Below, in pieces: positions 30,149-50,383 of a stretch of DNA of 64,000 nt. Under the pieces are notes generated by a model. It was not told where the DNA came from and did not search any database. It saw nothing but the letters and a program-made list of their open reading frames with translations. The position numbers were made by a program, and so were the translations under genes. Every line of letters begins with the position of its first letter. Within the stretch, counting starts at the first letter, position 1. The DNA is from a virus, in the IMG/VR virus record IMGVR_UViG_3300050016_000310; one strand, given 5' to 3'.

Positions 30149-31537
30149 TTGACTATGTGGTCCCGGGCCCCCTCAGCACCTCGTTACCCCTCCCTGAACC
30201 GGCTATTAGCCCATGCGCCCGCGTCCTGCTTCCGGATCCAATACCCCTGCCTGGCCGAGCTGGTCTTGGCCCGCAACGTCATCAATACCGAGCAGATTGA
30301 TCAGTTTCTCACCGGCATGCACGTCGAGGATATCCAGGAGATTAACGGCTGGCTCGATACGACGCTCCGCAAGTTCCTCATCAACCGCTACGACAAGGTG
30401 ATACCGTACAAACCCCTCCCCTCGGATCCGGCCTTCATGCAGGGCAAGACAGATCTGGAGAAGGTCGTACTGAGCGATGAGCTGACCAACAAGGTCCAGC
30501 ATATCGTCGATTATCTGAAGAACAAGCTGACGGCTGAGCCGACTTTCAAGCTCGGCGCCTTCCAGGCCGAGGAGGCGTTCAAGCAATCGGAGGAATGGTC
30601 CAAGCAGCTTGCGAAAAAGAAAACGACCGAAGAGGAAGAGGGCGTCGATTACAAAATCGTGATGCCGCTCGGGGAAGGTTACAACTGGGTCGATCTCATC
30701 AGCCAGAACTCCTTGCTCAAAGAAGGCAAGTCAATGGGCCACTGCGTAGGGGGCTATTGGGACCGGGTGAAGGCCGGGGTGGACCAGATCTTTTCGCTTC
30801 GCGACGATAAGAACGCGCCGCATGCAACGATCGAGTACAGCCCCCGCTCCCGGACCATCAGACAGATCAAGGGCAAGCAAAACCGGGGCCTGGTGGCCGA
30901 GTACATGCCCTACCTGTTGGAGTTTCTGAAGAATCCACCAGTCCCGGTTCGCAAAGTCGAGGAGTACGAGCTGGCCTTGAACGGCCTCCTCAAGGCCAAA
31001 GACGGGTACTTGTCGCTTCAAAACCTCCCCGAGGGAGCGCATATCGATCAGAATATGGATCTGTCCAAGTTCAAGGACATCACGCTGCCGAAAAATATGA
31101 CAGTCTCGGGCGACCTAAAAGTCACGAGTAGTAACTTCCTGCCGGAAGGACTCACGGTTACCGGCACACTCAACTTGACCAAGTCCGATCTCCGCGAACT
31201 CCCCGCCCGGCTTACGGTCGGGACGCTCAATATTTTCGGACTGGGCCGGATGGAGACGCTCCCGGACGATATCAAGATCTCCAAGGAGCTGAACGCGGAG
31301 TTCTCGGGGCTGGAAAAGTTGCCTGACAACTTCACGCTCAAGGGGGACTGCACGGTCAGCGACACGGCCCTCAAGGTACTCCCCAAGAAGCTCAAAGTGG
31401 GGGGTGAGCTGGATATCATGAATACCCAGATCGAGACCCTCCCGAAAGATCTGAAGGTCGGCAAAGCCATCTTCGTGGACGATCCCGACACGATGGAAGA
31501 TGAAGCGCCTGAGCATCTGAAAGATTTGGTGCACTGA
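30149..31537 (+). CDS. PcfJ-like domain protein with C-terminal LRR-like repeats
   Basis: EGKSMGHCVG...IFSLRD...PHATIE...QIKGKQN; LPEGLTV/LPDNFTL repeats. Confidence 0.8.
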   Translation: MTMWSRAPSAPRYPSLNRLLAHAPASCFRIQYPCLAELVLARNVINTEQIDQFLTGMHVEDIQEINGWLDTTLRKFLINRYDKVIPYKPLPSDPAFMQGKTDLEKVVLSDELTNKVQHIVDYLKNKLTAEPTFKLGAFQAEEAFKQSEEWSKQLAKKKTTEEEEGVDYKIVMPLGEGYNWVDLISQNSLLKEGKSMGHCVGGYWDRVKAGVDQIFSLRDDKNAPHATIEYSPRSRTIRQIKGKQNRGLVAEYMPYLLEFLKNPPVPVRKVEEYELALNGLLKAKDGYLSLQNLPEGAHIDQNMDLSKFKDITLPKNMTVSGDLKVTSSNFLPEGLTVTGTLNLTKSDLRELPARLTVGTLNIFGLGRMETLPDDIKISKELNAEFSGLEKLPDNFTLKGDCTVSDTALKVLPKKLKVGGELDIMNTQIETLPKDLKVGKAIFVDDPDTMEDEAPEHLKDLVH

Positions 31538-33420
31538 TGCCGCCTCTTGCCACCAAGCTCAAGCTCACCGCCCCACAAATCAAACTGCTCGTCGAAACGC
31601 TCAACAAAGCGTTCAAGGAAAAATCTCACAAAGAGAAGGCGAGTCTGGCGGATTACACGTTTGATCCGGTCACTTCGGGCGAGATCCGGACGGCCTTGGA
31701 AAAGGGGAGTCCGGAAGGGCTTGCGCTCTTCGATCAGGTGAGCAAGCTTCTGGACGAGGACGACCTTCGGAAATCCCTGGGGGGCGCGATCACCTACGAC
31801 ACCCATCACGACAAACAAGGCGCAGTGCCCGACTATTACGGCGCTATGGCGATCAAAAGTTTCAAGGGGCCTAAGACTAAAAAAGAGCACATCAATATTT
31901 ACGACTGGCAGTGGAGGATGGATCACAAGGGAGCCTTTACGGAGGACTCCGATAAGATCCTGACGAAGCTCCCGGCCGCCGAGCGGAAGGCTCTGATCGC
32001 CAAACTAGATTTCCCTGCTCGGTGGGAAGTGGAGAAGGACCCCCAGAAGGGCTGGACGGGTCTAGTGGCCGATGTCCCGCTCAAGAAGTGCTTCCTCAAC
32101 ATCAACTTCTACACGGAAAAGTTTATCAAGGCAGCCCAGACCCGGTTGAAGGTCGCGGGAGCCGATGCCGATACAATCGATCACGAAAAGCTCGTGGAGA
32201 ATTTGGCCGCATGGTTCAATGACAAGATCCGCCAAGAAGACGAGTACCACGACTCCGAGGAGTACGCGTTGGAACAAGACGACGGCTACTCAAAGGGGGA
32301 GGCCGAAGAGAAAGATTTCAAAAAGCTCCGCGACGATTCCAACTTTGACGATTCGGTCCTCACCTACATCCAACGTCTTGAAGATATTGGGGTAGATGAA
32401 AACGAGATCCAAAATTTGTTGGTAGGGAATGGTGAGAAAGAATTCTCCAGCAGCTACCACAACGTAGACAATTCAATGGGAAGTTTCGAGGGAGGGAGGG
32501 ATGAGCAAATCGATTTCGGCCGGGATGACGACCAGGGCTTTGCGGACGACAACAAGGATAAGAAGGACTTGTTCCCTTTCCCCGAGGATCTGGACGCCAA
32601 CATCGCCCTAATGGACACCGAGGATGTGGAGAAATTCCAAAAGGAGATCGATATCGGAGCAGTGGACATCCGATATAACGCTACCGACGGTTGCTATGAG
32701 GTTAAGGACATGACCGTCTATACAAGCGATAGCAATTCGGTCCATTGGGTCCTCGACGTCCCTGCCTTCATCTCCCAAGCTAAACGCCTCATCAAGAACG
32801 ACAAACTCTCGCTCAAAGAAGAGCGCCGAGAGCAGAAGCGCCTGGCCGGTCCTAAGAAGAAGCACCCGTCCGATGAAGCGATGGAACGGATCGCAGAGGA
32901 AGATGCAGCCGAAAGGAAGCGCACCGGGGTGGATGAGGACGACAACACGGCCGCATCGAGCTACCCCACCGTCTCCAGCGTTCTGGCTGATCCCTACGCC
33001 ACCGTCTCGCGGGTCTTGGCCGCCAAAAAGAAACCCCCAACCGATGATGAGCTGATGGACGCGCTGAAGTTCCTGAAGGACTCTGGCCTGGTCCCGACCG
33101 GCCACGGTAAGCCGACTCTACCCAGCCAGACCCCACCCTTCACGATCACCCTGGATCCAGCAGAGAATCTGTACTACCTGCTGGCGGACTACGGGAACGA
33201 CAAGAAAGATCTCTGGACCGTCACGCCCACGGGCGATTCCGAATACGTGGGGAGCGTCAAGGGGCACTTCCAAGTCCAACCTGGCTGGCACGAGTATTCC
33301 GACTCTGATTTCTACGATTATGTCCCGTTGGAAGTCATCCAAGAAGTTCTTGGGCTCCTCGATCCCACCTTCGAAAAAGACGACGAAGATTTTGGCGCCG
33401 GAGGTCCGGGGCATGGGTAA
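31537..33420 (+). CDS. Large acidic hypothetical protein
   Basis: 627 aa; internal SYPTVSSVLA/PYATVSRVLAA motifs. Confidence 0.7.
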   Translation: MPPLATKLKLTAPQIKLLVETLNKAFKEKSHKEKASLADYTFDPVTSGEIRTALEKGSPEGLALFDQVSKLLDEDDLRKSLGGAITYDTHHDKQGAVPDYYGAMAIKSFKGPKTKKEHINIYDWQWRMDHKGAFTEDSDKILTKLPAAERKALIAKLDFPARWEVEKDPQKGWTGLVADVPLKKCFLNINFYTEKFIKAAQTRLKVAGADADTIDHEKLVENLAAWFNDKIRQEDEYHDSEEYALEQDDGYSKGEAEEKDFKKLRDDSNFDDSVLTYIQRLEDIGVDENEIQNLLVGNGEKEFSSSYHNVDNSMGSFEGGRDEQIDFGRDDDQGFADDNKDKKDLFPFPEDLDANIALMDTEDVEKFQKEIDIGAVDIRYNATDGCYEVKDMTVYTSDSNSVHWVLDVPAFISQAKRLIKNDKLSLKEERREQKRLAGPKKKHPSDEAMERIAEEDAAERKRTGVDEDDNTAASSYPTVSSVLADPYATVSRVLAAKKKPPTDDELMDALKFLKDSGLVPTGHGKPTLPSQTPPFTITLDPAENLYYLLADYGNDKKDLWTVTPTGDSEYVGSVKGHFQVQPGWHEYSDSDFYDYVPLEVIQEVLGLLDPTFEKDDEDFGAGGPGHG

Positions 33421-33426
33421 TCCCCG

Positions 33427-33858
33427 ATGATCCCGATCACGCAGGACCAGTTCGGCGAAGAAGGCAACTGCATGGCGGCTTGCGTCGCCTCAATCCTGGA
33501 GCTGTCGCTCGATCAGGTCCCCAACTTCGCCGCAGGAAACAACAGCTCGGGCGCCTGGTTCCCCAAGATGTGGGACTTCCTCTATCCACGCGGCTTCGAG
33601 ATCGTCCCTTACTACCTGTCCGGCCGGGTCAATCCCGACGACACACCCCTACCAGATGAAGTGCTCAACTTTCTGGATCTACCTGAGCATCTCCTCAAGG
33701 TTCATCCGTACTACCTGCAATGCGGACCGGCCGCCCGAGGCTTCAGCCACGCGACCGTGGGACGCGGTGGCCTCATCGTCCATGATCCCCACCCGAGCCG
33801 GGCGGGCCTCATCAAGACCGACCACTACCTGTTTCTCTGCCCCCTCTCGAAAGAGTAG
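33427..33858 (+). CDS. Possible papain-fold (C39-like) protein
   Basis: QDQFGEEGNCMAACVASIL...SHATV...HDPHP. Confidence 0.55.
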   Translation: MIPITQDQFGEEGNCMAACVASILELSLDQVPNFAAGNNSSGAWFPKMWDFLYPRGFEIVPYYLSGRVNPDDTPLPDEVLNFLDLPEHLLKVHPYYLQCGPAARGFSHATVGRGGLIVHDPHPSRAGLIKTDHYLFLCPLSKE

Positions 33859-33861: not shown

Positions 33862-35532
33862 CTACTTCTTTTTCTTGGCGGCCTTCTTAGTGGGTTTGGC
33901 GGCCGGTTTTTTGTGTCGCTTCTTGCCAACTTTTTTGCTGACTTTTTTCTTTTCCGGTTCCGGCACCATGTAGCCGGTGTCGTGCAGCCGCTCAGGGAAG
34001 CGCTCGATCGCGGCCGACTCGTCAAAGCCGTTATCGTAGCTCCAATCTTTCCCGATAGGAGTTTCGGTTTCGAGGTGGTATCCAGACCCGGCGCCGTTTT
34101 CCGACAGGTTGTTGAAAATTCTCGCGAGCGGAACCACCAGATAAAATTTCCCGTCCGATAGAACGGTGGACTCTCCGTTGGGAAACTCAATACCCTCCAG
34201 CTCTCGGACGATCATCTTGTACATCTCGTCTTCGGTGCCTACCTGATGCCCGTCGTGAGCGGCATCCCGGAGTGCCTGGATCAAGTCCTCCGGCAACTCG
34301 TCCGCATGCTGCTTGTACCAATCCCCATTACTATAACCTTTGGAGGGGGACGAATCGGTCTCCCGCTCGACCTGCTTCACCGCTTCCTGAATCTTCGCAT
34401 AGGTCAGAGGATTGTCTTTTTGAAGGCTATCGATCAGCTGGGTGCAATCCAAATATTCAAGATCGTCAACGTCACTGTAGTAATCAAAATCTTCCATGGA
34501 GGGCAGGTCTACCTTGGCGCCCAGATCTTTCAACTTTTGGGAAAATTCTTCCGGGTAAGTACCATATAGCCAAACGTCATCCCCCTCCAGAGAGATCTCG
34601 GAACCCTCCCCGTCTTTGCTCAGGTTGTGGAACATCTGCTGAACGACTTTTTTAATCAGCTTCGGCTTATTTTTGACCACTTCGATATCTTGGACTTTGC
34701 CGTCCAATTTAATCAAACCGGCATTGCTCAAATCGCGACTATCCACATCCGCCGTTTTGAAATCGGTGAGTAGGAGATCCTTCACGTAGGAGTGATATTT
34801 TTCAACTACCTCCGCATTGCCTTTGCCCTTGATCTGATTGACGGACTTGCTGGTATCAGCACCGTGTCCGTGCAACCCCACCTCGATCGTCACGTGAGGT
34901 TCGTTCTGCGGATCCCTAAGAGAGAGGATCTGGACATTCCCTGAGTTTACATTTCTCCAGTAGCTTCCCACGCAATGGCCCATCTTGGTACCCTCTTGCG
35001 ACAGGGTCGCCTCAGAGGTTAGATCACGCCAGGTAAATCCATCCGAATACTTCTTGAAAATCTTCTCACCCTCAAGCGCTTCCCCTTGATCGACCTTCTT
35101 CTTGGTCAGCTGCTTTGTCCACGCGTCCGACTGCTTGAGTGCCTCCGGCACCGTCAGGGCATCGAGCTTAGCCGGAGCCTGCTCCGACTTCAGATAATCG
35201 ATGACGTGACGGATCTTGTCCCGAAGAGGCTTGTCGATCTGGACCCTGAAAATCTCTTTGCCTTCATCCAGGGCCTTTTGAAGCCAGGGGGGTGATGTCG
35301 GATCAGTCTGATGAACCTGCCGGGCCTCTTCGTAATCCCGAATCAGATACTTGCGGAGGTTCGAGTTCAACCATTGGCGGATCGGTTCGTCTTCCTGAAC
35401 CCCCACCGTCTGCACGAACCGGTCAATGTCCTCGACGTTGACGACGTTGCGCGCCAACACCACCTGGGCGAGCGTCCGGTATCGCCAGTTATTTCCAAGG
35501 ACTTGCGCGAGGGTGGGATAACGCGGCGGCAT
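33862..35532 (-). CDS. PcfJ-like domain protein, paralogue of 30149-31537
   Basis: LARNVVN, EGTKMGHCVG, ILSLRDPQNEPHVTIE, QIKGKGN. Confidence 0.8.
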   Translation of the reverse strand: MPPRYPTLAQVLGNNWRYRTLAQVVLARNVVNVEDIDRFVQTVGVQEDEPIRQWLNSNLRKYLIRDYEEARQVHQTDPTSPPWLQKALDEGKEIFRVQIDKPLRDKIRHVIDYLKSEQAPAKLDALTVPEALKQSDAWTKQLTKKKVDQGEALEGEKIFKKYSDGFTWRDLTSEATLSQEGTKMGHCVGSYWRNVNSGNVQILSLRDPQNEPHVTIEVGLHGHGADTSKSVNQIKGKGNAEVVEKYHSYVKDLLLTDFKTADVDSRDLSNAGLIKLDGKVQDIEVVKNKPKLIKKVVQQMFHNLSKDGEGSEISLEGDDVWLYGTYPEEFSQKLKDLGAKVDLPSMEDFDYYSDVDDLEYLDCTQLIDSLQKDNPLTYAKIQEAVKQVERETDSSPSKGYSNGDWYKQHADELPEDLIQALRDAAHDGHQVGTEDEMYKMIVRELEGIEFPNGESTVLSDGKFYLVVPLARIFNNLSENGAGSGYHLETETPIGKDWSYDNGFDESAAIERFPERLHDTGYMVPEPEKKKVSKKVGKKRHKKPAAKPTKKAAKKKK

Positions 35533-35857: not shown

Positions 35858-37318
35858 ATGTCAAAAAAAGTGAAAGCTCCCAAGAAAGAAAAGATCGCGA
35901 AGGTCACCAAGGTCACGAAGGCCAAGAAGACGATCGCGCAGGATGAACCCGGCTCTCTCGTGGCCGGGTCCGCCAATCTCCAGGCGATCGAAGGCTTCCT
36001 AGAGAAGCAGCTCAAGTGGACGGATCGTGTCCGCGCCAAAGAAGTGGCGTCCAATGAAGCTCTCGACCTGACGCTCCCCCAGTTCCTCTCCAAGTCCCTC
36101 GAAGCCTCCGTGAACCAGGAGGACGAAGCCTACGCGGAAGCGCTGAAGGCCCGCTCGGCCGACGATAAGCACACGGCGATCGTCAAGATCATCGAAGCGC
36201 GCCAGCGGGCGCTCACCGACACGACCGAAGATGAAGCGGCCGTAGAGGAAACTCAATACCTGGATGACGCCGGGGCAGAGCCCGACGCACTGAAGACCCC
36301 CCGCAAGAAGGGCTGGCTGGAGCGCACGTTCGATGAACTTTGCGTCCAATACCAAGCAGATCCATCCGATGACGTCCGCGACAGCCTCTTGGGCCTCATC
36401 GCCCAGATGGAAACGAATCGCCGAGTCCGGTTCTTCTACGATCTCCAGCAGCTCCGAATCGGCGCCTCCAACCGCTCCTCGACCTACGCTCGCGAGTTCG
36501 GGGTCAAGGACAGCTTCATCGATTACGCAGGCACCCAGCTGGAACGGCTGGAGCGTCACAGCGAGAAGATGGTGGACCGGATCCTGGCCCGCTCACCTGA
36601 CGGCGAGTTCTACGCCTATCTGATCGAGACCTACCTGGGTGTCGGCACGATGATGGCTGGTTGCATGATCTCCGAGATCTCCGCGCCGGAGCGGTTCCGT
36701 ACCGTCTCCTGCCTGTGGAAGTACGCGGGGCTCGCGGTCGTCAACAACGATCCCGCGACCGGCCGGGGCGGCCATTCACAGCGTCGGATGAAGGGGGAGG
36801 CGGCGGCCTGGAATCATTTCCTGCGCACCAAGCTCCTGGGAGTCCTGGCAAGCTGCATGATTAAAGCCCAAACCCGTCACATCGGGACGCCCGAGGAGAG
36901 CACGAAAGGTCGGAACGTCAAGGTCCTGAACGACTACAAGAACCGGCTCGCGACTCAGAACGATCTGGTCCCGGCATCCCAGCGGGTCTATAACGCGAAG
37001 GGCAAGGAAATCTTCACGTACCAGACGAACAAGCCAATCCAGGTCTACTCGGAAACCAAGCAGGGGCTTGGGGAAGTCCGGCCGTGCGACATCAAGCGCC
37101 GCTCCAAGGCCCACATCAACAAGATGGCAACCCGGTACATGATCAAAATGTTCCTGGTTGAGATCCTGAACAAGTGGAGAAACCTGAAGGGCTATGAATC
37201 TCTCCCGACGTACGACGAAGCGAAGCTGCGCGGTGGGATTCCCCACGGCGGATTCAACAACCGTCCGCTCCCAGTTCCGGCCGGGCGGAATCTCCCGCAG
37301 CCCAATCAGCACGCGTAA
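35858..37318 (+). CDS. tasA: Tas-like (Nop/IS110 C-terminal-domain) RNA-guided protein without evident nuclease, with long N-terminal extension
   Basis: YDLQQLRIGASNR, GVGTMMAGCMISEI, FRTVSCLWKYAGL, WNHFLRTKL, YKNRL, HINKMATRYMIKMFL; immediately upstream of dual-repeat arrays. Confidence 0.8.
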   Translation: MSKKVKAPKKEKIAKVTKVTKAKKTIAQDEPGSLVAGSANLQAIEGFLEKQLKWTDRVRAKEVASNEALDLTLPQFLSKSLEASVNQEDEAYAEALKARSADDKHTAIVKIIEARQRALTDTTEDEAAVEETQYLDDAGAEPDALKTPRKKGWLERTFDELCVQYQADPSDDVRDSLLGLIAQMETNRRVRFFYDLQQLRIGASNRSSTYAREFGVKDSFIDYAGTQLERLERHSEKMVDRILARSPDGEFYAYLIETYLGVGTMMAGCMISEISAPERFRTVSCLWKYAGLAVVNNDPATGRGGHSQRRMKGEAAAWNHFLRTKLLGVLASCMIKAQTRHIGTPEESTKGRNVKVLNDYKNRLATQNDLVPASQRVYNAKGKEIFTYQTNKPIQVYSETKQGLGEVRPCDIKRRSKAHINKMATRYMIKMFLVEILNKWRNLKGYESLPTYDEAKLRGGIPHGGFNNRPLPVPAGRNLPQPNQHA

Positions 37319-37328
37319 AATTGCTATC

Positions 37329-37373
37329 CTAATGGCAAGTCTGGGGGCATCTTGGGCCTCAACTTGCCATTAG
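37329..37373 (+). other. Stem-loop between tas and array 1
   Basis: 12-bp inverted repeat CTAATGGCAAGT / ACTTGCCATTAG. Confidence 0.6.
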
Positions 37374-37399
37374 AATGGCAACTCGTTCTTTGAAAAGAC

Positions 37400-38210
37400 C
37401 TGCGCCTCAGAAACTTTGAAACCCCTACGGAAAGATGCGCGCCCTAGTAGAAGTGAAATCCAATAATAAGCTGCTTGCCTAGATGTACGTGACGCCCTAA
37501 TGCCGCCCGCGAGCCTTTTTCCCGTTGTCACCCTAAGGTGAAATGCCTGCCTTTGGCCCTCTGAAATCCTATCAGCTATTGCGTGCCTACAAAAGGATGA
37601 AACCCAACCTCAACGGCGTGCCTCCGAATCGTTTGAATCCCTGCCAATTAGTGCTGGCCTCCGTGGACGTATTGAAATCCAGAATTGAATTGCTTGCCTT
37701 GCTTTCTTTGACGCCCCGAACTTAATCGCGTGCCCCTGCGGTCCTGAAGCCCTAAAATAAAATGCTCGCCCCTTATTGAGTGACGAAGCCCATAAGTGAA
37801 CTGCGAGCCCTGGAAGGTCTCGAAACCCCTATTGACCTGTGCGAGCCCAGCGCCTGTGAAACCCATAAGGAACATGCGAGCCCTGAGAATTCTGAACACC
37901 CTCTTTGATCTGCAAGCCAAGGATCGTGTGAAACCCTTTATAAGATTTGCGAGCCTAGATGCGAGTCCTTATCCCCGATCTACGTTGCGAGCCCTGAGAA
38001 TTCTGAACACCCTCTTTGATCTGCATGCCAAAAAGTTAATGAAACCCCTTCTCGTACTACGTGCCCGAGCTTATTTGAATCCCCCGTCTAAGTGCCTGCC
38101 CCTGATCCATGAAACCCAGACCTGGGTCGCGTGCCCTTCGTGTCGTGAAACCCATAATCTTATTGCGAGCCTCTCCTCCATTGAAACCCTACATCTCAAT
38201 GCGTGCCTCT
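37400..38210 (+). repeat. TIGR-like array 1 (~22 units of ~36 nt)
   Basis: Alternating TGCGAGCC-like and TGAAACCC-like octamers separated by ~10 variable nt. Confidence 0.9.
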
Positions 38211-38279
38211 CCGCCGTCCGATAGTCCGTCACGGGCCTTGCAAGCTAGAGGGCACCTGGGGGCTAGGAAGGGACTTAAA

Positions 38280-38564
38280 ATGAAGCGACCTACTTGGCGA
38301 GGCTTGGTGTTCTTGAGTCTATTGAGCCTCGGCGGCTTCGCGCTCGCCGATGGCGGTCCCTCTCCTACCCCTTCAACCTCCCCCACGACTCAACCGACAG
38401 AACAACCAGCGCCCACTCCCCTCGTCACGATCCCACCCATCATCAACAGCTGCACGCTCGTTGGATGGGCAGAAGGCAATACCGTGCAACTCTACACGTG
38501 CCCCGTGAACGGAAAGACTTGTGTTCTAGCTGCGGGCAATACGACTCAGCTTACCTGTTACTGA
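38280..38564 (+). CDS. Small secreted Pro/Thr-rich protein with Cys-rich C-terminus
   Basis: Signal-peptide-like N-terminus MKRPTWRGLVFLSLLSLGGFALA; four Cys. Confidence 0.65.
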   Translation: MKRPTWRGLVFLSLLSLGGFALADGGPSPTPSTSPTTQPTEQPAPTPLVTIPPIINSCTLVGWAEGNTVQLYTCPVNGKTCVLAAGNTTQLTCY

Positions 38565-38902
38565 TCAGAAGGGTTCGCAAGCTCAACAAGGGTCTGGCCA
38601 TGACAGGGCAACGGAAAACAGAAACATCCGAGGACCAACCCCTTCAGTTCCGGGATCCGGGCCAGCACCTCCGGCTGCGCCCGGATCCATTCCCGATGCC
38701 GGGCAATCGCCTCTAAATGGCTCGTGACCTTCACGCGGACGCCCGGCCCCCACTGCGTGGCGAACGGATTCCCCCAAAACGAAGGGCGACCCACGAAAAT
38801 ATCGTAGGGCTGCCGGAGGCAATGGACGACGAGCTGTTTTTTTATTTGTGCTCGCACCAGCGGCAGATCCCGTGAAGAAACATATCCCAATCTCCAGTCC
38901 AC
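38558..38902 (-). CDS. DUF4326-like protein (start uncertain)
   Basis: DIFVGRPSFWGNPF...LKGLVLGCFCFPLPCHGQTL. Confidence 0.8.
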   Translation of the reverse strand: MDWRLGYVSSRDLPLVRAQIKKQLVVHCLRQPYDIFVGRPSFWGNPFATQWGPGVRVKVTSHLEAIARHREWIRAQPEVLARIPELKGLVLGCFCFPLPCHGQTLVELANPSDQ

Positions 38903-39188
38903 TTCTTACACTGGCGGCATCGGCTCTCGCCAAATCCCCCAACCCAATCCGCGATTCTTCCCGCCCACCTAGACATGCGCCCTTATCGCTCCCCCGCTCC
39001 GCCCTGTCCACTAGAAGTTGCTGCGGGCCATCGCTAGAAGTTAGAGTTCCCTATCTGGCCATATTATGGTTCATGATTTCTGATATTCGTTGTTTTAATT
39101 GCTGAATTTGACTCGCCCCAGACCATATTATGGTCTGACATCCCTAGAACTTACTGCCGCCTCTGCCCCTTTTGGTAAAAGGAAATCC

Positions 39189-39458
39189 ATGTTCGACTCA
39201 CTGAATTCCCCGCGCCACATGCTGCTCAACGCGCAACAGGCCAAGGAATACCTGGGACAAGCCGACCGCCCCGCGTGGCTCCAAGCCGAATGGCTCAGAC
39301 GTCAGGAAGCTGCCCAGATCCAGGCCGCCTTGCCTCCACCCCCACCCAAGACCTTCCGAGAATGCCTAGCCGAGATATCGGCGATGCCCTTGATGCCTCA
39401 AGATTACTACCTGACAGTGGGGCTCTGGGAAGATCTCTTCGATCACGACTGGACATAA
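39189..39458 (+). CDS. Hypothetical protein
   Basis: ATG with AAGGA RBS. Confidence 0.55.
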   Translation: MFDSLNSPRHMLLNAQQAKEYLGQADRPAWLQAEWLRRQEAAQIQAALPPPPPKTFRECLAEISAMPLMPQDYYLTVGLWEDLFDHDWT

Positions 39459-39484
39459 TTAATTTAACGCGATAGCCAATTAAT

Positions 39485-39823
39485 ATGATCCATCCCGGCG
39501 CCATCGTCACCGTTCCGATCCAGGGCAAGCTCGCTCGCTGCTACGTCAAAACGATCCACGTCAATGCGTTGCTCGAAGCGATACTCGATGTCTCCCCGGT
39601 GGACTCGCCGAACTATACGTGCCCGGTACGGGCGCTCAATGTCACTCACATCGAGAACCAGGGCAAGCCTCAGCAGTGGTACCTGGGGGTCCACCGGTCC
39701 TCCGAATATCCCTATCCCCCTCTCTTCCACATCCATTCTAACGGCGGCATACCTCCGTCCCGCCCTCTCCACCTCGACGGCACTCCCTTCACCCGAGAAG
39801 AACTCCGAGATACCCGGCGATGA
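39485..39823 (+). CDS. Hypothetical protein
   Basis: 112 aa, ATGA-coupled to the next gene. Confidence 0.6.
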   Translation: MIHPGAIVTVPIQGKLARCYVKTIHVNALLEAILDVSPVDSPNYTCPVRALNVTHIENQGKPQQWYLGVHRSSEYPYPPLFHIHSNGGIPPSRPLHLDGTPFTREELRDTRR

Positions 39824-40407
39824 GTACTTGGGATCAGATTGGAGGGTTCTGGGGACTCGGGATCAGCCTTGCCGTGCTCGTCCTCTGCACCTGGCGCATC
39901 GTAAAATTAAATCAGGCTGACCTCTGGCGGCGCGGGATCTGCCCCTACTGCCGGATCACCATCCAGAATGAAGCCTGCATTGCTTGCGAGAAAAAATCCA
40001 AGCGCTCTGACGAGATCATCCAGCGCGAAGGGCGCATCAACAAAATCATGCTGGAGCAGCGGGCCCGCCAAGAAGCCTGCAAAGCAGGCAGCGCACCTCC
40101 CCCACCCGATATGTCACTGACCGAATTCCAGGGACAGCTCCTGGTGGCGATCAAAAAGTCTCCAGCCGAATGGCACCAGTTCATTGACGATGTGGTGGCG
40201 GGGAAGCTCGATCCGGATCCCTGGTGGAAGATCAACCTGGCCCACGGCCGCGTGATCCTCCACTCCTACACGCCCCACTCCCCTACCCGCGCCGAGCTGG
40301 ACGCAATCATTAAATCAGGTCAGCACCTGCGCGGCCATGACGTGCAGCTATCTCCTGGGTACGTCGCGAACGGCTCGATCCAGGGTGCCGATCAATTCCC
40401 CAAGTAG
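39820..40407 (+). CDS. Membrane-anchored hypothetical protein with zinc ribbon
   Basis: N-terminal TM segment, CPYC...CIAC. Confidence 0.65.
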   Translation: MSTWDQIGGFWGLGISLAVLVLCTWRIVKLNQADLWRRGICPYCRITIQNEACIACEKKSKRSDEIIQREGRINKIMLEQRARQEACKAGSAPPPPDMSLTEFQGQLLVAIKKSPAEWHQFIDDVVAGKLDPDPWWKINLAHGRVILHSYTPHSPTRAELDAIIKSGQHLRGHDVQLSPGYVANGSIQGADQFPK

Positions 40408-40539
40408 AATTTTACATCTGGGTTTACACGATGGGCCCTAACGGCCCACAGCCCCACAGCGTTTCCCTCCAGGGGTCTTTTCATTTCGGCCGAATCTGTT
40501 AGGCTGCCCGGGCCTCTGCCCATAGGGTGAACCGTAGAG

Positions 40540-41885
40540 TGCGAGCCTTGTGATGGGTGAAGTCCCTCGTGTATTTGCGAGCCTATGCTCCTCTGAAAAC
40601 CAAAACCTAGATGCGTGCCCCAATGGAAACGAATTCCTCCGAGACATTGCGAGCCTTAAGAAAAATGAAACCCCTATCCCTGGCGCGAGCCCCAAAAGAA
40701 TTGAAACCCTAAAGACCCACGCGAGCCCTTTCATAACTGAAGCCCCGACCTTTGGTGCATGCCAGCCTCATTTGTAGCCCCATAAAGCATTGCTAGTCTT
40801 TTAACCCAATGCTAGGGAACGCGAGCCTCGATCTGCTTGCCGAATGATCTTTGAAAACCTGCCAATACCTGCTCGCCTTGAATAAGGTGAAGCCCAATGC
40901 TCACATGCGCGCCTTAAAACGACTGAAGCCCGATATGTGATTGCGTGCCTGATGACAGATGAATCCCTAGCAAGGAGGGCGAGCCCCATGTCTCATGCCG
41001 ACCTACCAGCTCGTGCTTGCCCGATAGAATGTTGAACCCCTAACTATCTCTGCGAGCCCGGCAGCCCATGAATCCCAAAAACTGCGAGCGAGCCACAGAT
41101 GAATTGAAGCCCATAACATGCCTGCAAGCCTGGATACTTTTTGCAACCCTAAGTAGCCCCGCGAGCCTTCAGCCCAGGTGACCCCCTATATAATTGTGCG
41201 AGCCTTCAGCTTTGTGAGATCCAATTTTGTTCTGCGAGCCTTCCCATTTTTGAAATCCTTCGATGAAGTGCAGGCCCTATCAAAAATGAAACCCAATGCT
41301 ATCATTGCGAGCCCTAGCTCCCATGAAATCCTCAATCGGTGTGCGAGCCCTAGCTCCCATGAAATCCTCAATCGGTGTGCGAGCCCTTCGTACAATGCCA
41401 CCCTGTGTACTGTTGCGTGCCTTACTGGCCACGAAACCCGCAACCAATCTGCACGCCGTCCATAAAGTGAACCCCTACAGAAACCTGCGAGCCTATACCG
41501 CTGTGAATTCCAAAAACCATATGCAAGCTCTTACATTTCTGAACCCCTAATTGGACATGCGAGCCTCCAGACATCTGATGCCCCAGTCCGTTCTGCCTGC
41601 CTCAAAACTTTTGAAACCCCTACGCCGATTGCGTGCCAGAAACTGTATGAACCCCATAGTGTTTTTGCGTGCCAAGACAGCACCGAAACCCCCCATTAAT
41701 GTGCGAGCCCCGTTCATGGTGAAATCCAAAACCACTCTGCGTGCCGACGAACCGGTGAAATCCCTAATCTGACAACGGGCCTTGACAGCCATGCCATCCA
41801 AAAATTCGGTGCAAGCCCAACCTCTCCTGAAACCCAAAAGGCACTTGCAAGCCCTTCAGTCCATGACGCCCTTTTAGTTGCTGCT
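40540..41885 (+). repeat. TIGR-like array 2 (~37 units)
   Basis: Same dual repeats and ~36-nt period; exact tandem unit duplication at 41306-41377. Confidence 0.9.
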
Positions 41886-41912
41886 GGCCCCCGGAGCAAT
41901 CCGGGGGCCTTT
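41886..41912 (+). terminator. Intrinsic terminator closing array 2
   Basis: GGCCCCCGGA-GCAA-TCCGGGGGCC followed by TTT. Confidence 0.75.
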
Positions 41913-41926
41913 AGTAAAAGCTTTCC

Positions 41927-42271
41927 ATGGCTACTACTCACGGTCTCATCGTCATGCTCAAGCAACCGGCAACCGTTACGGCCGATCTCGGCTTCCCTAT
42001 CGGCAGAATTCAGAAACTCCAGATCACCGCCTCTCTCGATGATGGCGGCCTTCTACGGGCGGTAGCGATCCAGCATGATCCTGACAAAAAGTCAGATCGA
42101 ATCCTTCATTTCATCGTACGAGAGATGGTCTTCACCGAAAAAGAACAAAAAGTTTGGGTGGACATAGACATAGAAGATGCTACCTCGATCCCCTACGGAT
42201 TTTACTGGGACGCCAAGAGAGGCAAAATTGACCGCTGTTATCCCCAGCCCGATTCCCAGAAGGTCACTTGA
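41927..42271 (+). CDS. Hypothetical protein (IPYGFYWD family; paralogue at 51405-51760)
   Basis: AIQHDPDKK...IPYGFYWDAKRG. Confidence 0.7.
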   Translation: MATTHGLIVMLKQPATVTADLGFPIGRIQKLQITASLDDGGLLRAVAIQHDPDKKSDRILHFIVREMVFTEKEQKVWVDIDIEDATSIPYGFYWDAKRGKIDRCYPQPDSQKVT

Positions 42272-42302
42272 CCTGAGCGGGCCGGTCAGATAGGCACGAA
42301 CC

Positions 42303-42944
42303 ATGGCAGATCTCCAGCTCCGCGAAGAAATCTCGTACCTCAAGCTCCAGCTCGACAAGACGGAGGGCCGCCTGCTTCTGCAAGCCGCCCACACCCACAC
42401 GCTCCGCGATGGGATCTATCAGATCGAGGCCGTCCTCCGCGACCGGAGCAGCCTAGTCCAAACCACCCTTGCCGTAGCAGAGAAGCTGCTGGCGCTCTCC
42501 CCCACCGACGACGAAACCGGCTTCATGACCCAGCTCCGGGAGACCGAGCTGGCGCTACATGCCGACCTCAAGGAAGCCCGGGTCCAGATCAACCGGCTCC
42601 AGGTCCAGCTGGATCTGCTCCAGGACCGCTGTCGCCAGGCCATTACGGCCCAACGGAACATGAAAGACCTGTCTGGGCCTGTCCATCGGATCGGCCTCGC
42701 CATTGCCAACCTGGGAGAGCCGGTGACCTCCACCGGGCTCCTGGCCACACAAAGCGTGGCCCGCGCGGGCGGGCTCATGAAGGCGGTAGAAATAGTCAAC
42801 TATCATGCTTCGCTCCCCAGCCGGAATGAAGCCTGGAAGGCCGCCTGCCGGGACATCGCCGTGAGCTGCGAGGCGACTGCCGGGCGGATCCTGCGCGGCG
42901 AATACGAAGAGCCCACGAGTGATGTGATGGGATCCCAGGACTAA
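42303..42944 (+). CDS. Coiled-coil hypothetical protein
   Basis: 213-aa Leu-rich helical ORF. Confidence 0.7.
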   Translation: MADLQLREEISYLKLQLDKTEGRLLLQAAHTHTLRDGIYQIEAVLRDRSSLVQTTLAVAEKLLALSPTDDETGFMTQLRETELALHADLKEARVQINRLQVQLDLLQDRCRQAITAQRNMKDLSGPVHRIGLAIANLGEPVTSTGLLATQSVARAGGLMKAVEIVNYHASLPSRNEAWKAACRDIAVSCEATAGRILRGEYEEPTSDVMGSQD

Positions 42945-42994
42945 GACACCCCGCACAATAAGCATAGCGTGGCGGTGCGCCCCATGGTATCGGA

Positions 42995-43575
42995 GGGGGC
43001 CCTCGGAGAGATGAAACCCAAAATGGTCTTGCACGCCTGATATGCATCGAAACCCAAAGAGCTGATGCGAGCCCTTGTTAACGTGACACCCCCGTCGTCG
43101 ATGCGAGCCTTAGAAATTTTGCCACCCGAATAAACCTGCGAGCCCTCGTATCCGTGAAACCCCTAAGTCTAGTGCAAGCCAGCTTGGGCGTTGAAACCCC
43201 TGACATTGCTGCAAGCCAAGTCCGTTTGAAACCCGAAGAGTGCATTCGAGCCCTGTATAGATTGGAACCCCTTGTGCCGTTGCGAGCCCAGGATGACGCG
43301 AAACCCCAAAGTATGGTGCGAGCCAGATTTCGAATCGAATCCCAAAAGTCGGTTGCGAGCCCCTGATGAAATGAAACCCAGACGTCTCCTGCAAGCCCCT
43401 CAGGATGTGGAACCCAAAATCATTATGCAAGCCTATGAGGCCATGAAAACCTAAACAACAACGCAAGCCTTCTCAATAGTGAAGCCCTGAAATATCGCCG
43501 CGAGCCAAAATCCTCCTGAAGCCCTTTTCATTTTTGCGAGCCTTAACAAGGCTGAATCCCTCCTTCTGTTTGCTG
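42995..43575 (+). repeat. TIGR-like array 3 (~16 units)
   Basis: Same dual repeats and ~36-nt period. Confidence 0.9.
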
Positions 43576-43607
43576 CCCTCCAGGAATCTCCTGGAGGGCT
43601 TATTTTT
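43575..43607 (+). terminator. Intrinsic terminator closing array 3
   Basis: GCCCTCCAGGA-ATC-TCCTGGAGGGC followed by TTATTTTT. Confidence 0.8.
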
Positions 43608-43612
43608 AGGGT

Positions 43613-43897
43613 ATGCGGTTCCCGACGGTTGAGCTAGTCCTCGCCTCCATGTACGAATTCAGACTCGTCGTCCAATATTCAAATGGGGAGCTGGAAGGCT
43701 TCGCCGGATCTAGCCTTTCCGAAAAAGGTGCCCACCAGGATGCTGAACGCAAGGCCCTGGACAAGATTGAAGAGCTTCAACGGTCCGGCAGATCCGGGCG
43801 GTTCCTCGGCCAAGCCGAGTACGAAAAACTCTCCCCCGAGAAGAAACAGGCGCTCAAGCAAGATTGGGAAATGTCTCTTCAAGGCAAAGGCGAATGA
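43613..43897 (+). CDS. Hypothetical protein with N-terminal FPTVELVLA motif
   Basis: 94 aa, ATGA-coupled. Confidence 0.65.
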   Translation: MRFPTVELVLASMYEFRLVVQYSNGELEGFAGSSLSEKGAHQDAERKALDKIEELQRSGRSGRFLGQAEYEKLSPEKKQALKQDWEMSLQGKGE

Positions 43898-44868
43898 ACC
43901 CTGTCAAGTATCCCCATCTTCACCGGGTCCTGGCCGCCGCCCCCCTAACAGGCTACAAAGTCATGCGCTACCAGCCCGTCCGGGGGCCTGGGGCGGGCGA
44001 TGCGGTGTCGGGCGCCGACTCCCGCATCAGCTTCAAACTCCAAAAGGGCGCCCGTGTCCAAATGCGGGACCCGGGGATCTGGATGAGCCTGAGCCGACAA
44101 TACGTGCTCGACCACTATTCAATCCACGACCAGAACGTACTCATCACGTTCGCGTTCAACCCGGCTGACGTGACCCACGGCAACCTGACGGACCGCGAGA
44201 CCGAGTTCACCGTCCCCTCCGCGATCATCAAAGACTTCGAGATCCTTCCGGCTGAAGACGACGCAGCTCAACCCGGCCGCCCCTTTGGTGCGCTCGCTCA
44301 AGTCCTCGCAGGAAAGCTCGACAGCTTCAACGTCTTCCGTGGCGTGAAGGACATCTATCTGAGCCAGGTCGATCCTCGCCATGTGGGTGATGGCTACTGG
44401 GGCCAGGGCACCTACTACGCTCTCTACAAAAGCGACGCGGAGGACTACGCGACCCAAGACATCACGGGCGAGATGGACCGGTGGGCCTTTGTCATCCAGT
44501 ACGCGTTCTCAGGATCCTGCAAAGAATTTGGCCAAGGCGAATTGCTGAACCTGGACAAAAATTATATGGGAGTGGATCTCCCGAAACGCTACCCACGCGA
44601 ATCGATTTTCGTACTGACCCAGGACGAAGATGGAATCAATCCGCCCGAGGGCGGAGAGCAAGTCCTCATCACCCAAAAAGCAAAGCCCACTCTCAAGGCC
44701 CAACAGTTCTGGGTCTACCTGGCAGAATCGGAGAACGCGGAGATCCTGGGCAAGATGTTCAAGCTGAAAATGGGGCCGCTCAATAGCGTAGGCCCGTTCA
44801 AGATGTCGATGGCCACCAAGATCGACAATGCTCTCAAGACTTTGGTCTACGCGCAGGTGGGCGAATGA
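43894..44868 (+). CDS. Putative two-domain ADP-ribosyltransferase-fold protein
   Basis: GIWMS...ETEFTV, and VFRG...GDGYWGQGTYYA...AEDYA; each domain preceded by a VLA motif. Confidence 0.55.
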   Translation: MNPVKYPHLHRVLAAAPLTGYKVMRYQPVRGPGAGDAVSGADSRISFKLQKGARVQMRDPGIWMSLSRQYVLDHYSIHDQNVLITFAFNPADVTHGNLTDRETEFTVPSAIIKDFEILPAEDDAAQPGRPFGALAQVLAGKLDSFNVFRGVKDIYLSQVDPRHVGDGYWGQGTYYALYKSDAEDYATQDITGEMDRWAFVIQYAFSGSCKEFGQGELLNLDKNYMGVDLPKRYPRESIFVLTQDEDGINPPEGGEQVLITQKAKPTLKAQQFWVYLAESENAEILGKMFKLKMGPLNSVGPFKMSMATKIDNALKTLVYAQVGE

Positions 44869-45623
44869 ATCCCCTTCACTACCCAGCGCTCGCCCGCGTG
44901 CTGGCCTCCTCTGTGCCGACCGAAAAGGAATTCTTCCAGATGGCTCGTCGGGGCAAGCTCCACCAGGACGCGGGCAAGCCCACGCCTGGCGAGACCCCCA
45001 CGAGCACGCCCCTTCAACTCGGCCGGTTGAACGGATACTCGATGGACGACATCGCCCACTTCTACGCGAAGCGCGGCGGCTTCCAACCCTTCACCTACCA
45101 AGAATTCCTGGCCGATCTTAAGGCCGCCCCTGGACCAGCTCTATCCGCCCTGCTAAGCAAGGACGATAAGGGTCTCATCAAAGTTTTGAAGATCCTCAAT
45201 CAGTATGGGGAGGCGCAGGGACTCACGCCTCAAATACTCAAGCAGCTTATGCCCTATCGTCCGGATCATCCGATCCAAGTGTTCCGAGGGTTGTCGTTCA
45301 CCGACGAGAAGGAAATGAAGCAGCTCATCGGGATCAGCCCCAAAGACATCGGACCCAAGACCCAGGTGCGGGGGAAGTTGGGAATCCACTGGACCACTTC
45401 GTACGACACCGCATCAGATTTCGCCATGCACCCGGATCGCCCCCTCCGCCTGATCGTAGAAGCGCTAGTCGCCCCGGCTCAAGTTTTAGTGGAGATGGAC
45501 CGATTACCTCCCGAGATCCTAGCCCAACTGGAATGGGTGAACGAAGAAGAAATCACCCTATTACCTGACGTAAAGGTCCAGGCCCGGGTGGTGGACTTCT
45601 CGGATCTTTCGGAGGCGCGATGA
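44865..45623 (+). CDS. Putative ADP-ribosyltransferase-fold protein
   Basis: VFRGL...GIHWTT...ASDFA...NEEEITL. Confidence 0.55.
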   Translation: MNPLHYPALARVLASSVPTEKEFFQMARRGKLHQDAGKPTPGETPTSTPLQLGRLNGYSMDDIAHFYAKRGGFQPFTYQEFLADLKAAPGPALSALLSKDDKGLIKVLKILNQYGEAQGLTPQILKQLMPYRPDHPIQVFRGLSFTDEKEMKQLIGISPKDIGPKTQVRGKLGIHWTTSYDTASDFAMHPDRPLRLIVEALVAPAQVLVEMDRLPPEILAQLEWVNEEEITLLPDVKVQARVVDFSDLSEAR

Positions 45624-46126
45624 ACCCCCTCCACTACCCAGCACTCGCGCAAGTCCTAGCAGCCTTCAAACCCTGGACGGTCGAACAGGTCTGGAAATCG
45701 GTTCCTTGGCAAGATAGTTATCACGATCTATACCCGGGCTACAGCAAGCCCGCTGACGACGAACACTTCGAATCCTACTACCCGGATGAAGCAGCGGCCC
45801 GCGAGGATGCGCTGGATATGATCGCTCGCTTCACCGATCTCCCCGATCCGATCCCGATCTTCCGAGTCATCCACGCCAAATCGGAAAAAGACATCAAGCT
45901 GGATCGGTTGGGCAACCACTGGGCGTGGGTCAAGAAATCCGCTCTGAGCTTTGCCTCCCACAATATCTCGGGCAAGCCCTGGTTTCTCCTCACCGCCGAA
46001 ATCCCAAAAGCCAAAGTCGATTGGCCTACCACGCTCCGGAAGCAGTTCCATTTCCCAGAGGAAAATGAAATTAACCTGGCCTCTTGGAACCAGCCAAAGC
46101 TGCTGGAGATCGAAAAGCTCAAATAG
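45620..46126 (+). CDS. Putative ADP-ribosyltransferase-fold protein
   Basis: IFRVI...LGNHWAW...EENEINL. Confidence 0.55.
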   Translation: MNPLHYPALAQVLAAFKPWTVEQVWKSVPWQDSYHDLYPGYSKPADDEHFESYYPDEAAAREDALDMIARFTDLPDPIPIFRVIHAKSEKDIKLDRLGNHWAWVKKSALSFASHNISGKPWFLLTAEIPKAKVDWPTTLRKQFHFPEENEINLASWNQPKLLEIEKLK

Positions 46127-46142
46127 TTGGTAAATCAATCTC

Positions 46143-46418
46143 ATGACCCTCTGGGACGGCATGATGGACTCGGTCAAGATCTTCGGAACCATCCTGGCCG
46201 TCTGGTGGGGCTCCCTGCTCTTTTTCAGAGCCCGCCGGATCCACCGAAACTGGCGATTCCGGCGTTACTGGAAACGCCTGCCCCAGGTCAATCCGAACGA
46301 CCCCGAGACCTTCCTGTCTCTCAAATCTGGCGAGATCTACGTGATCTGTGCCCCTGAACAGTTGGGGAAGATGACGGTCCGGCAGGATCTGACCTGTGGC
46401 CCCATTTCTCTGGATTGA
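46143..46418 (+). CDS. Small membrane protein
   Basis: One TM helix. Confidence 0.55.
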   Translation: MTLWDGMMDSVKIFGTILAVWWGSLLFFRARRIHRNWRFRRYWKRLPQVNPNDPETFLSLKSGEIYVICAPEQLGKMTVRQDLTCGPISLD

Positions 46419-46454
46419 TTTGACTCACCTGTCTATTTCTTGTACAGATCCGGC

Positions 46455-46766
46455 ATGACAGGCTTTGATAAACGATACCCCACAGTCGCCAAAACGCTCG
46501 TAGAAGCTATCTTTCCACCCCCTAAGGACGGCAAGGTATTTGCTACATTGCGTAAATACAAGGCTGTAGGGGGCCGTCAGGTATACTCAAATGGAGCTGG
46601 GCGTAAAATCGTACACTTCGTTTGGGATGCCCAACATGGGCATTGGGAAGTCTATACACGCCTCGGAGTAAACACTCATTCCATAAAAAACGATGGCAGC
46701 GTGGTGGACACTTTTGCAAAACGTGATGACAGGAAAAGGTTAATATTATATACCTGGACCCTTTGA
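46455..46766 (+). CDS. Hypothetical protein with RYPTVAKTL motif
   Basis: ATG at 46455; lower GC than flanks. Confidence 0.55.
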   Translation: MTGFDKRYPTVAKTLVEAIFPPPKDGKVFATLRKYKAVGGRQVYSNGAGRKIVHFVWDAQHGHWEVYTRLGVNTHSIKNDGSVVDTFAKRDDRKRLILYTWTL

Positions 46767-47005: not shown

Positions 47006-47140
47006 GGCGAGACTCCCCTGAATTCAAATATATGATTGCTACCTACGCGATCATCTATGGGGGGTCATCTTTTAGCTACAACAGGTTAGCTGAAAACTAG
47101 GATTTTGAACGCACACTCAAAGGGTCCAGGTATTAATATT

Positions 47141-48728: not shown

Positions 48729-48868
48729 AGCTCACATGGCATCTCCGCAGCTTACAAAACTATTACCCCGTAATAACTTCCCAATCTACTTTGTAAGAAA
48801 AAGTCCGAGTCGAACTCCGGTCAGGAGTCGTCACTTTCAAATTCCCAGCAAACCCTAGATCTTTCAAT

Positions 48869-49572: not shown

Positions 49573-49584
49573 GACGTCTCTCCC

Positions 49585-49959
49585 TCAAACCAACGGCTTC
49601 AGCTGATAGGTTCCGTCCGGCCGGAGTTGCAACTGAAAATTCCCCTTCACAAAGGACAACCCGCTCTCCCGGATAGCCTGAGCAATCAACTGAACCGTCT
49701 GATTCTTCCGGGTCGGCTCCCCATCAATAAACTTCAAAGCCTCCACCGAGATCACGTCGTAATCATCCGCCACCGCATGCGGAAGGAAGTCCTTCGAGTT
49801 GTTCGTCAGGATCGCCGTCCCCTCCGCCAACTCCCGGATCTCCTCATCTGCCATCCCCTTCTTCAAAACCAAAACCTTAAAGCCCGAATCTTTCAATCCG
49901 GCTTTCAATTGAAAGAGGTTCTCGTCCAACAGGATCGTAAGCTTCGAACGCAGGTCCAC
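49585..49959 (-). CDS. PIN-like (DUF5615/Mut7-C-type) domain protein
   Basis: ILLDENL...GMADEEI...ILTNNSKDF. Confidence 0.75.
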   Translation of the reverse strand: MDLRSKLTILLDENLFQLKAGLKDSGFKVLVLKKGMADEEIRELAEGTAILTNNSKDFLPHAVADDYDVISVEALKFIDGEPTRKNQTVQLIAQAIRESGLSFVKGNFQLQLRPDGTYQLKPLV

Positions 49960-50250
49960 TCAATCATCTCGTCGGCCATGGCCGTGGATCTCGTCGTTTT
50001 TCCCGACGCCCGGTGTCGCCGGTTTCGGGCCCGCAAGAGCGCGGTCGATCTCAGCGACGATATCGTGCGACATAAGACCCTCGCCGTTTTTGCGGCCCGG
50101 CGTGCCGTGCAGCACGCACAAGAAGTCATCGATAGCCGTCAGACGAATCGATTGCCTATCGTTTTGCGAGCGTAAATCAAGAATCTCTTCCCGAGCCCTT
50201 TTGAGAATTTCGGTTTGTTCCACGGTGAATGCCATGAGATCCCCTTTCAA
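49960..50250 (-). CDS. Hypothetical protein
   Basis: 96-aa ORF; start may be the internal ATG. Confidence 0.55.
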   Translation of the reverse strand: MKGDLMAFTVEQTEILKRAREEILDLRSQNDRQSIRLTAIDDFLCVLHGTPGRKNGEGLMSHDIVAEIDRALAGPKPATPGVGKNDEIHGHGRRDD

Positions 50251-50296
50251 ATTTGAGACGTAATTTTTCTCTTCCTTAAGTTGACCGCCATCGTCT

Positions 50297-50383
50297 TCAT
50301 ATCGATGGAATTTTCATAAAGTAAATAATACGTTTGGAATGGGCTAGGACTTGCTCCAGATGCGGGTACTTCGGTTCAGTCAT
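50297..50383 (-). CDS. 28-aa mini-ORF (or gene remnant) carrying the YPHLEQVLA motif
   Basis: Manual translation MTEPKYPHLEQVLAHSKRIIYFMKIPSI; AAGGA RBS. Confidence 0.45.
   Translation of the reverse strand: MTEPKYPHLEQVLAHSKRIIYFMKIPSI

Follow-up and report, generated by a model that had tools for sequence, protein, structure and literature searches.

A short peptide tag shared by unrelated proteins of an uncultured jumbo phage, with a possible role in loading the phage head

The tag and its copies

The 64,000-nucleotide stretch of viral DNA analysed here (IMG/VR record IMGVR_UViG_3300050016_000310, called the window below) derives from an uncultured jumbo phage whose DNA occurs in peat metagenome runs, no RNA run being among those listed; it encodes a tail-fibre protein, a head maturation protease, a clamp loader, a DnaB-type helicase and an SbcD-like nuclease. 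About a dozen of its predicted proteins share a peptide of 9-10 residues with the consensus [KR]-Y-P-[TA]-[LV]-[ASE]-[KQR]-[VI]-L-[AS], which we call the tag; the sequence downstream of it is variable and often rich in Ser, Pro or Lys. IMG/VR holds one close relative of the phage, a 223-kb contig (G001; protease 69% identical), in which about 24 open reading frames (ORFs) carry the tag. ORFs of the window and of G001 are designated by W and G, respectively, followed by a number; L065, L134 and L136 are other contigs. The window contains the following copies:

5373-6206, minus strand: degenerate copies YPTVEAAS, YPGIAAALA and YQGLKKVLR in the C-terminal third of an 849-residue protein (5199-7748)
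11667-11693, plus strand: divergent FA variant FAKLKEVLA at residue 6 of an 83-residue ORF (11652-11903) whose G001 orthologue is 59% identical
12878-12940, plus strand: YPTLSKLLE (12878) and YPTTERLLA (12914) near the start of W12851, a protein of 173 residues that starts at 12851 inside ORF 12677-13372
30185-30271, plus strand: YPSLNRLLA (30185, residue 11) and YPCLAELVLA (30242, residue 30) at the N-terminus of a PcfJ-like protein (30155-31537) whose G001 orthologue is 62% identical
32962-33021, plus strand: YPTVSSVLA (32962, residue 476) and YATVSRVLA (32995, residue 487), tandem internal copies at a domain junction of W31537, a 627-residue ORF (31537-33420)
35452-35520, minus strand: YPTLAQVLG (35520, residue 5) and YRTLAQVVLA (35481, residue 18) at the N-terminus of W35532, PcfJ-like (33862-35532)
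43613-46766, plus strand: five consecutive tagged genes starting at 43613, 43894, 44865, 45620 and 46455, three of them putatively ADP-ribosyltransferase-like, with copies at 43619-43645, 43909-43935, 44284-44310 (internal; the second copy of W43894, between the two halves of the protein), 44880-44906, 45635-45661 and 46476-46502
50342-50368, minus strand: YPHLEQVLA in a 28-residue ORF (50297-50383)

A first-pass annotation, made by reading the window alone, had proposed that this peptide is a portable tag with a role in capsid targeting or protease cleavage. A six-frame scan found its peptides where it had placed them; as to its two weaker copies, HYPIVAAEL (62810) has its Tyr at residue 20, lacks V-L-A and is not a copy, and SYPTVEAAS, in the 849-residue ORF at 5199, is indeed a weak copy, the better degenerate copy of that ORF being QYPGIAAALA (5499-5525, minus strand), which is kept in G001 as RYPGLASIFA. 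The copies listed there are otherwise real, but the list was incomplete and lacked those at 12878 and 12914 as well as the FA variant at 11667. The G001 orthologue of W12851 (G199560) begins with MKTQ and has the copy YPTLSAILA.

The same annotation had named a motif no commoner than chance as grounds for dropping the tag. The motif is far commoner: the strict pattern [YF]P.[LV]..[VIL]L[AGS] has nine matches in the window ORFs versus 0.16 expected from 200 residue shuffles (maximum 2), and 13 matches in G001 versus 1.0 expected. When a position matrix built from 16 tag copies was run on the window and G001, 33 sites reached at least 12 bits and 18 sites at least 18 bits, against expectations of 1.7 and 0.1, respectively. 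The strict pattern had no match in 417 kb of unrelated phage loci.

The tag is constrained at the protein level. Third codon positions vary throughout among the copies (TAC/TAT, CCC/CCA/CCG, five Leu codons, four Ala codons), indicating selection on the peptide and not on the DNA, and conservation at the DNA level that includes the synonymous positions was not found: codons differ at every position. The tag is also kept in both phages at GC contents of about 57% (window) and 46% (G001). Within the peptide, only four positions are hydrophobic (L/V at +3, V/I at +6, L at +7 and A at +8); Tyr gives way to Phe in 7 of 37 copies, and Ala often stands in place of Thr3. A hydrophobic core of the Sec/Tat type (at least 10 residues after a basic N-region) is not present in the tag, where hydrophobic and polar residues are interspersed.

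In 27 of 31 carriers the aromatic residue of the tag lies at position 3-11 of the protein; start codons were chosen with the position of the motif known, and an independent gene call concurs for 43894, 44865 and 45620. BLASTP, run with the motifs masked, sorts the carriers into 23 mutually unrelated groups. Orthologues retain the tag though the flanking sequence diverges, and homologues of the carrier domains elsewhere (in other phages, as stand-alone or embedded domains) have no tag. W31537 and its G001 orthologue G38930, which has YSALSKVLA at residue 446, differ in the C-terminal domain that lies beyond the tag: a domain swap took place precisely at the tag.

Structure predictions place the tag outside the fold of its carriers. 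The AlphaFold2 model of W35532 (from an 80-sequence alignment) has an overall predicted local distance difference test score (pLDDT) of 87, with values of 54-64 for residues 1-30; the first tag is modelled as an isolated helix at residues 6-12 and the confident fold starts at about residue 28. Alignments of W45620 with its structural look-alikes begin only at residue 13-22. Taken together, these results show the tag as a short amphipathic helix that sits on a flexible arm and is appended to domains unrelated to one another. With about 23 unrelated groups, orthologues that keep the tag, homologues that are tagless and a position outside the modelled folds, the proposal of a portable tag on unrelated proteins holds.

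Both the tag motif and its lineage are new. Outside the window, a back-translated tag pattern had five matches in G001 (none in the reversed control), and two metagenome contigs encoding proteases of 64-65% identity also have tag copies, in the case of L065 on the orthologue of W46455. The tagged proteins had no match among GenBank phages, either at the DNA level or by tblastn, and no relatives of W44865 and W43894 were found in IMG/VR. In IMG/VR, a degenerate DNA version of the tag pattern had more than one match only in G001, the other 12 matches being chance; in GTDB genomes it had 61 single matches, all in wrong frames or in unrelated conserved genes. No other contig of IMG/VR or GTDB has multiple matches. 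The tagged lineage is small.

When the tagged PcfJ-like proteins were used as queries in an exhaustive profile search, 11,252 relatives were returned. A [YF]P-type motif stands right before the conserved RNVxN in at least 15 cluster representatives among the best 80 of these; many of the YP-type relatives have a second, more N-terminal copy, and the rest of the family has a different short hydrophobic helix at the start. Most PcfJ-like members outside the YP lineage begin with M-K-x-h-x-x-h-h-h-[AE]-RN, for example MKTYLIA-RN, a start that resembles the T4 targeting sequence discussed below and is a hint of N-terminal tagging of the PcfJ-like family in many phage lineages.

Tagged proteins, head protease and a promoter-like element

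The carriers of the window are proteins of 94-627 amino acids with one or two domains each; none is a fusion of 2-15 effector domains. Two are PcfJ-like (Pfam PF14284), a domain that also occurs within proteins of 2100-3300 amino acids; a literature search on PcfJ in phage virions found nothing relevant. Part of W35532 is in addition weakly similar to GNAT acetyltransferases (Foldseek probability up to 0.98, E above 0.02, template modelling score by target 0.35-0.43).

For W43894, W44865 and W45620 the nearest structural look-alikes are ADP-ribosyltransferase families (scores 0.90-0.93), among them PARP, ART-PolyVal, exotoxin A, DRAT, NarE and DUF4765, and we treat it as a lead that the three proteins are ADP-ribosyltransferase-like. 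Neither W44865 nor W43894 had a match among PDB sequences, and the only match of W44865 in a homology search was itself. Against G001, residues 112-251 of W44865 are homologous to a segment of a 2451-residue protein (E 4e-8) and residues 115-321 of W43894 to a segment of a 1645-residue protein (E 8e-8). These two giants (23504-30859 and 16323-21260, both on the minus strand) look like polyvalent proteins: the larger one has NUDIX, RNA-ligase-like and ParB-like pieces next to the ADP-ribosyltransferase-like segment that is homologous to W44865. In W31537, residues 522-613, which follow the internal tags, are homologous to a stand-alone, untagged 99-residue ORF of G001 (L045:8237-8536).

The tag at 50383, which the first-pass annotation had counted as a tagged protein, is present, but only in the 28-residue ORF, which an insertion separates from the domain it belongs to:

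49585-49959, minus strand: DUF5615-like gene, split from the 28-residue tag ORF (50297-50383) by an insertion of about 340 nucleotides

In G001 the end of the tag (...AHSKR) and the start of the domain (...SKLTILLDENL) are contiguous within one protein of 194 residues (G180963), where the tag lies between a helix-turn-helix (HTH) domain and the DUF5615 domain. The insertion holds a 96-residue ORF (49960-50250). A search of the whole 64-kb window against Rfam returned no match; an intron at 49960-50340 is therefore unsupported.

Further features of the window that bear on the function of the tag are the following:

7761-8534, minus strand: candidate head maturation protease (PHROG 18299, E 2e-37)
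5199-7748, minus strand: acidic low-complexity protein of 849 residues, directly after the protease gene, in which Pfam finds DUF3175 (E 5e-13) and, below its cut-off, a RyR-like domain
33427-33858, plus strand: papain-like protein of 143 residues (PHROG 5845, E 3e-26; Cys...His pattern), wedged between tagged genes
43597-43612, plus strand: promoter-like element GGCTTATTTTTAGGGT, immediately upstream of the ATG that opens the tagged operon
near 8547 (minus), 12838 (plus), 18421 (minus), 24121 (minus), 27650 (plus), 30142 (plus) and 35544 (minus): similar elements

The protease candidate is 31-37% identical to the head proteases of phages of Vibrio, Xanthomonas, Erwinia and Pseudomonas with genomes of 195-263 kb. 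It had no match in Pfam, its profile matched nothing among PDB sequences, and its AlphaFold2 model is poor (pLDDT 46); a PDB fold search with that model found nothing. A comparison with T4 gp21 by hhalign gave a probability of 0.4%, and, as the protease is not placed in the gp21 family, no cleavage specificity can be derived from it. A complex prediction for the protease, based on an alignment of four rows only, with residues 1-40 of W45620 scored 0.01. The suggestion of the first-pass annotation that cleavage probably occurs after Ala finds no backing here, since there is no conserved cleavage motif and these searches did not link the protease to gp21. Removal of the tag by the head protease is possible, though the sequence gives no sign of it. 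The acidic 849-residue protein is possibly a core or scaffold component. The papain-like protein at 33427-33858 was considered as the common reader of the tag and rejected: it has no homologue in G001 though the tag is conserved there.

In L136 (4295-6754), a gene for a ClpP-type protease lies beside a PcfJ-like gene with a YP variant, and the next ORF, of 107 residues, ends with RYPTVAAVLW; the tag is therefore not tied to one protease family.

The promoter-like element has the consensus GGTTATTTTTTAG, with a distance of 13 +/- 1 nucleotides from TTATT to the ATG, and ends 2-4 nucleotides before the start codon; the window has 14 sites, versus 1-5 in shuffles. It precedes the genes of the head protease, W12851, W30155 and W35532, the five-gene tagged operon and W27669, which lies ahead of a Gly-rich fibre-like gene. 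G001 has the element at the protease gene, the gene of the 2451-residue protein, six tagged genes and about a dozen others. It is absent from those replication genes that were checked. Its sequence and spacing suggest a phage promoter that would give leaderless or near-leaderless mRNAs, and its distribution is a hint that tagged genes may be co-regulated with the head protease. Versions of the element that lie farther upstream, with a Shine-Dalgarno sequence after them, precede structural-looking genes of G001.

Known systems with comparable peptides

A capsid-targeting sequence of the T4 proteins IPI, IPII, IPIII and Alt was reportedly described by Mullaney and Black in 1996. In the T4 record, IPII and IPIII start with MKTYQEFIAE and IPI with MKTFKEFTS. 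The internal proteins of T-even phages are diverse and the targeting sequence is their sole common feature (PMC3012670); of its residues, 4 and 7 are needed for targeting and 8 and 10 for processing (PMC9026906). The tag resembles this sequence in being short, in its position at the extreme N-terminus and in being the only feature common to diverse accessory proteins. Both start with a basic and an aromatic residue followed by h-x-x-h-h-A (YQEFIA in T4, LAQVLA here), the ADP-ribosyltransferase Alt of the T4 cargo has a counterpart in the ADP-ribosyltransferase-like proteins here, and in both cases the carrier genes are clustered in variable regions. The two differ in that the tag has no sequence homology to MKTYQEFIAE or MKTFKEFTS, and in that the T4 sequence ends in a cleavage site, I-A-E (an L/I-x-E motif), whereas the tag has none. 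There are also far more carriers here: the 64-kb window has about 12 and the 223 kb of G001 about 24.

In the giant phages phiKZ, 201phi2-1 and SPN3US, head and ejection proteins have N-terminal propeptides, most of them exceeding 100 residues, with A/S/G-x-E cleavage sites mapped by mass spectrometry; gp53 and gp54 of SPN3US are diverged paralogues with conserved N-termini, and a targeting role has been proposed for the propeptides (PMC5694885). The phage of the window is likewise a jumbo phage and, if the tagged proteins belong to the head, one rich in accessory head proteins; unlike these propeptides, the tag has only 9-10 residues, is common to unrelated families and comes without mapped cleavage. 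For polyvalent proteins, which occur in phages and conjugative elements, packaging in the virion and delivery together with the DNA have been predicted (Iyer et al. 2017, PMC5512222). Such proteins have the same kinds of effector domain as the carriers, and two proteins of the window are homologous to segments of the G001 giants, but the domains of polyvalent proteins are joined covalently, whereas those studied here stand alone and share a peptide. That the tag is a general linker of polyvalent proteins was considered and rejected, as the giant proteins of G001 have no copies.

Parallels also exist outside phage heads. Encapsulins and bacterial microcompartments dock diverse cargo to a shell through short amphipathic helices, called cargo-loading peptides and encapsulation peptides, respectively, which are borne by flexible linkers at either terminus or between domains. 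The consensus of these peptides differs from the tag and no such shell gene was seen; the shell here would be the phage capsid.

Docking, head loading and other readings of the tag

There is good support for the peptide being a portable docking element with a common reader, and a docking motif accommodates the internal and C-terminal copies better than a trimmed-off leader does. The tag would consist of a Tyr-Pro cap and a two-turn amphipathic helix on a flexible arm. A single partner common to all carriers probably recognises it, the likeliest being part of the assembling head core; the tagged accessory proteins would thus be packed inside the capsid for delivery alongside the DNA, in the manner of the T4 capsid-targeting sequence. 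That the partner is the head core, with the carriers packaged and injected, is, on indirect evidence, our favoured reading, held tentatively and at somewhat less than an even chance. Besides the enrichment, conservation, portability and N-terminal position of the tag and its place outside the fold, these observations argue for it: the kinds of cargo fit (ADP-ribosyltransferase-like and PcfJ-like proteins, and domains found within the polyvalent-like giants of G001); the tagged genes and the gene of the head protease have the promoter-like element in common; degenerate tag copies, one of them conserved, are present in the acidic protein encoded beside the protease; and the T4 targeting sequence is a precedent.

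Several observations weigh against head loading. The tag also occurs in linkers and at C-termini: internal copies (W31537, W43894, G180963) are unlike a T4-type leader, four of the 31 carriers (W31537, its orthologue G38930, G180963 and G36172) have internal copies only, and the C-terminal copies of G178864 and of the 107-residue ORF of another phage (L136) are atypical of such a leader too. Following tag position 10 there is no conserved residue, and Glu is variable or absent, unlike in the T4 sequence. Many untagged genes have the promoter-like element upstream as well. The carriers include a fusion of HTH and PIN-like domains and a 57-residue ORF immediately upstream of the DNA polymerase gene, and the fraction of tagged ORFs, about one in ten, is high. 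Some of these points would suit docking to another hub of phage or host, such as a polymerase, a chaperone, a protease adaptor or a membrane platform, with no packaging involved. Short linear motifs typically have such a form and tolerate N-terminal, linker and C-terminal positions in the way the tag does; the tag is also presented on a flexible arm, and a DNA-binding HTH fusion, an ORF beside the DNA polymerase gene and so many tagged ORFs would be natural among the clients of such a hub. There is no candidate hub to name, however, and to our knowledge the tag is unlike clamp-binding or other known hub motifs; morphogenesis is suggested instead by the kinds of cargo and by the promoter-like element that tagged genes have in common with the gene of the head protease. 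We regard such a hub as the next most probable reading after head loading, at well below an even chance. Even then, the tag would point to a hub on which roughly a tenth of the phage genes depend.

It is improbable that the tag is a processing or turnover signal, at which a protease of phage or host trims, separates or destroys the carriers at a set time. Cleavage at the copies in domain junctions (W31537, W43894, G180963) would free separate domains, many copies are followed by a Glu within a few residues (VLASE, VLAALE, KTLVE), and the window does encode a head protease; yet several copies have no Glu nearby, the residues after the tag are not conserved, the papain-like candidate (33427-33858) lacks a homologue in G001 despite conservation of the tag there, and for most carriers the trimming of 2-10 residues would have no evident use if it lacked a targeting role. 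Even less probable is a site for a modifying enzyme (a glycosyltransferase, ADP-ribosyltransferase or kinase) that marks all carriers: glycosyltransferase genes do lie near tagged clusters, at 24414-27269 in the window and near a tagged PcfJ-like gene in L134, but no single enzyme gene was seen to adjoin the tagged genes in both phages and the tag has no invariant modifiable residue, Tyr interchanging with Phe and Thr with Ala. The copies might, finally, have no common function and be either the remnant of one diverged family of paralogues or a nucleotide signal (a downstream box or a repeat). Some carriers are paralogous (the PcfJ-like pairs, G127077/G127511 and G47037/G190413), and the proximal copy of PcfJ-like proteins overlaps the N-terminal helix that this family has of its own before RNVxN. 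We consider this very unlikely, the least probable of all these explanations: the 23 BLASTP-unrelated groups differ in predicted folds and in lengths, third codon positions vary, the two phages are 11 points apart in GC content, and the internal and C-terminal copies exclude an RNA signal linked to the start codon.

If the tag is a head-loading signal, or a sorting signal of another kind, the cargo of an uncultured jumbo-phage lineage could be listed from sequence alone and would here include ADP-ribosyltransferase-like, PcfJ-like and PIN-like proteins. Head loading would also mean that the T4 strategy of a shared targeting peptide with interchangeable accessory proteins arose independently, on a larger scale and in very different phages; it would provide a short handle for packaging foreign proteins and link tagged effectors that stand alone here with the polyvalent proteins found in related phages. 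A further step, which we think rather doubtful, is that a peptide code of nine residues replaces covalent fusion in this lineage: effector domains that are joined within giant polyvalent proteins in relatives, but encoded by separate genes here, would each be recruited non-covalently by the tag to one carrier for delivery to the host. The whole set of injected proteins would then be readable from sequence, and new effectors could be added by attaching the tag.

The region upstream of the five-gene tagged operon (35858-43607) encodes a 486-residue protein similar to IS110-type transposases (Pfam Transposase_20), followed by repeat arrays; the operon begins directly after the last of these arrays.

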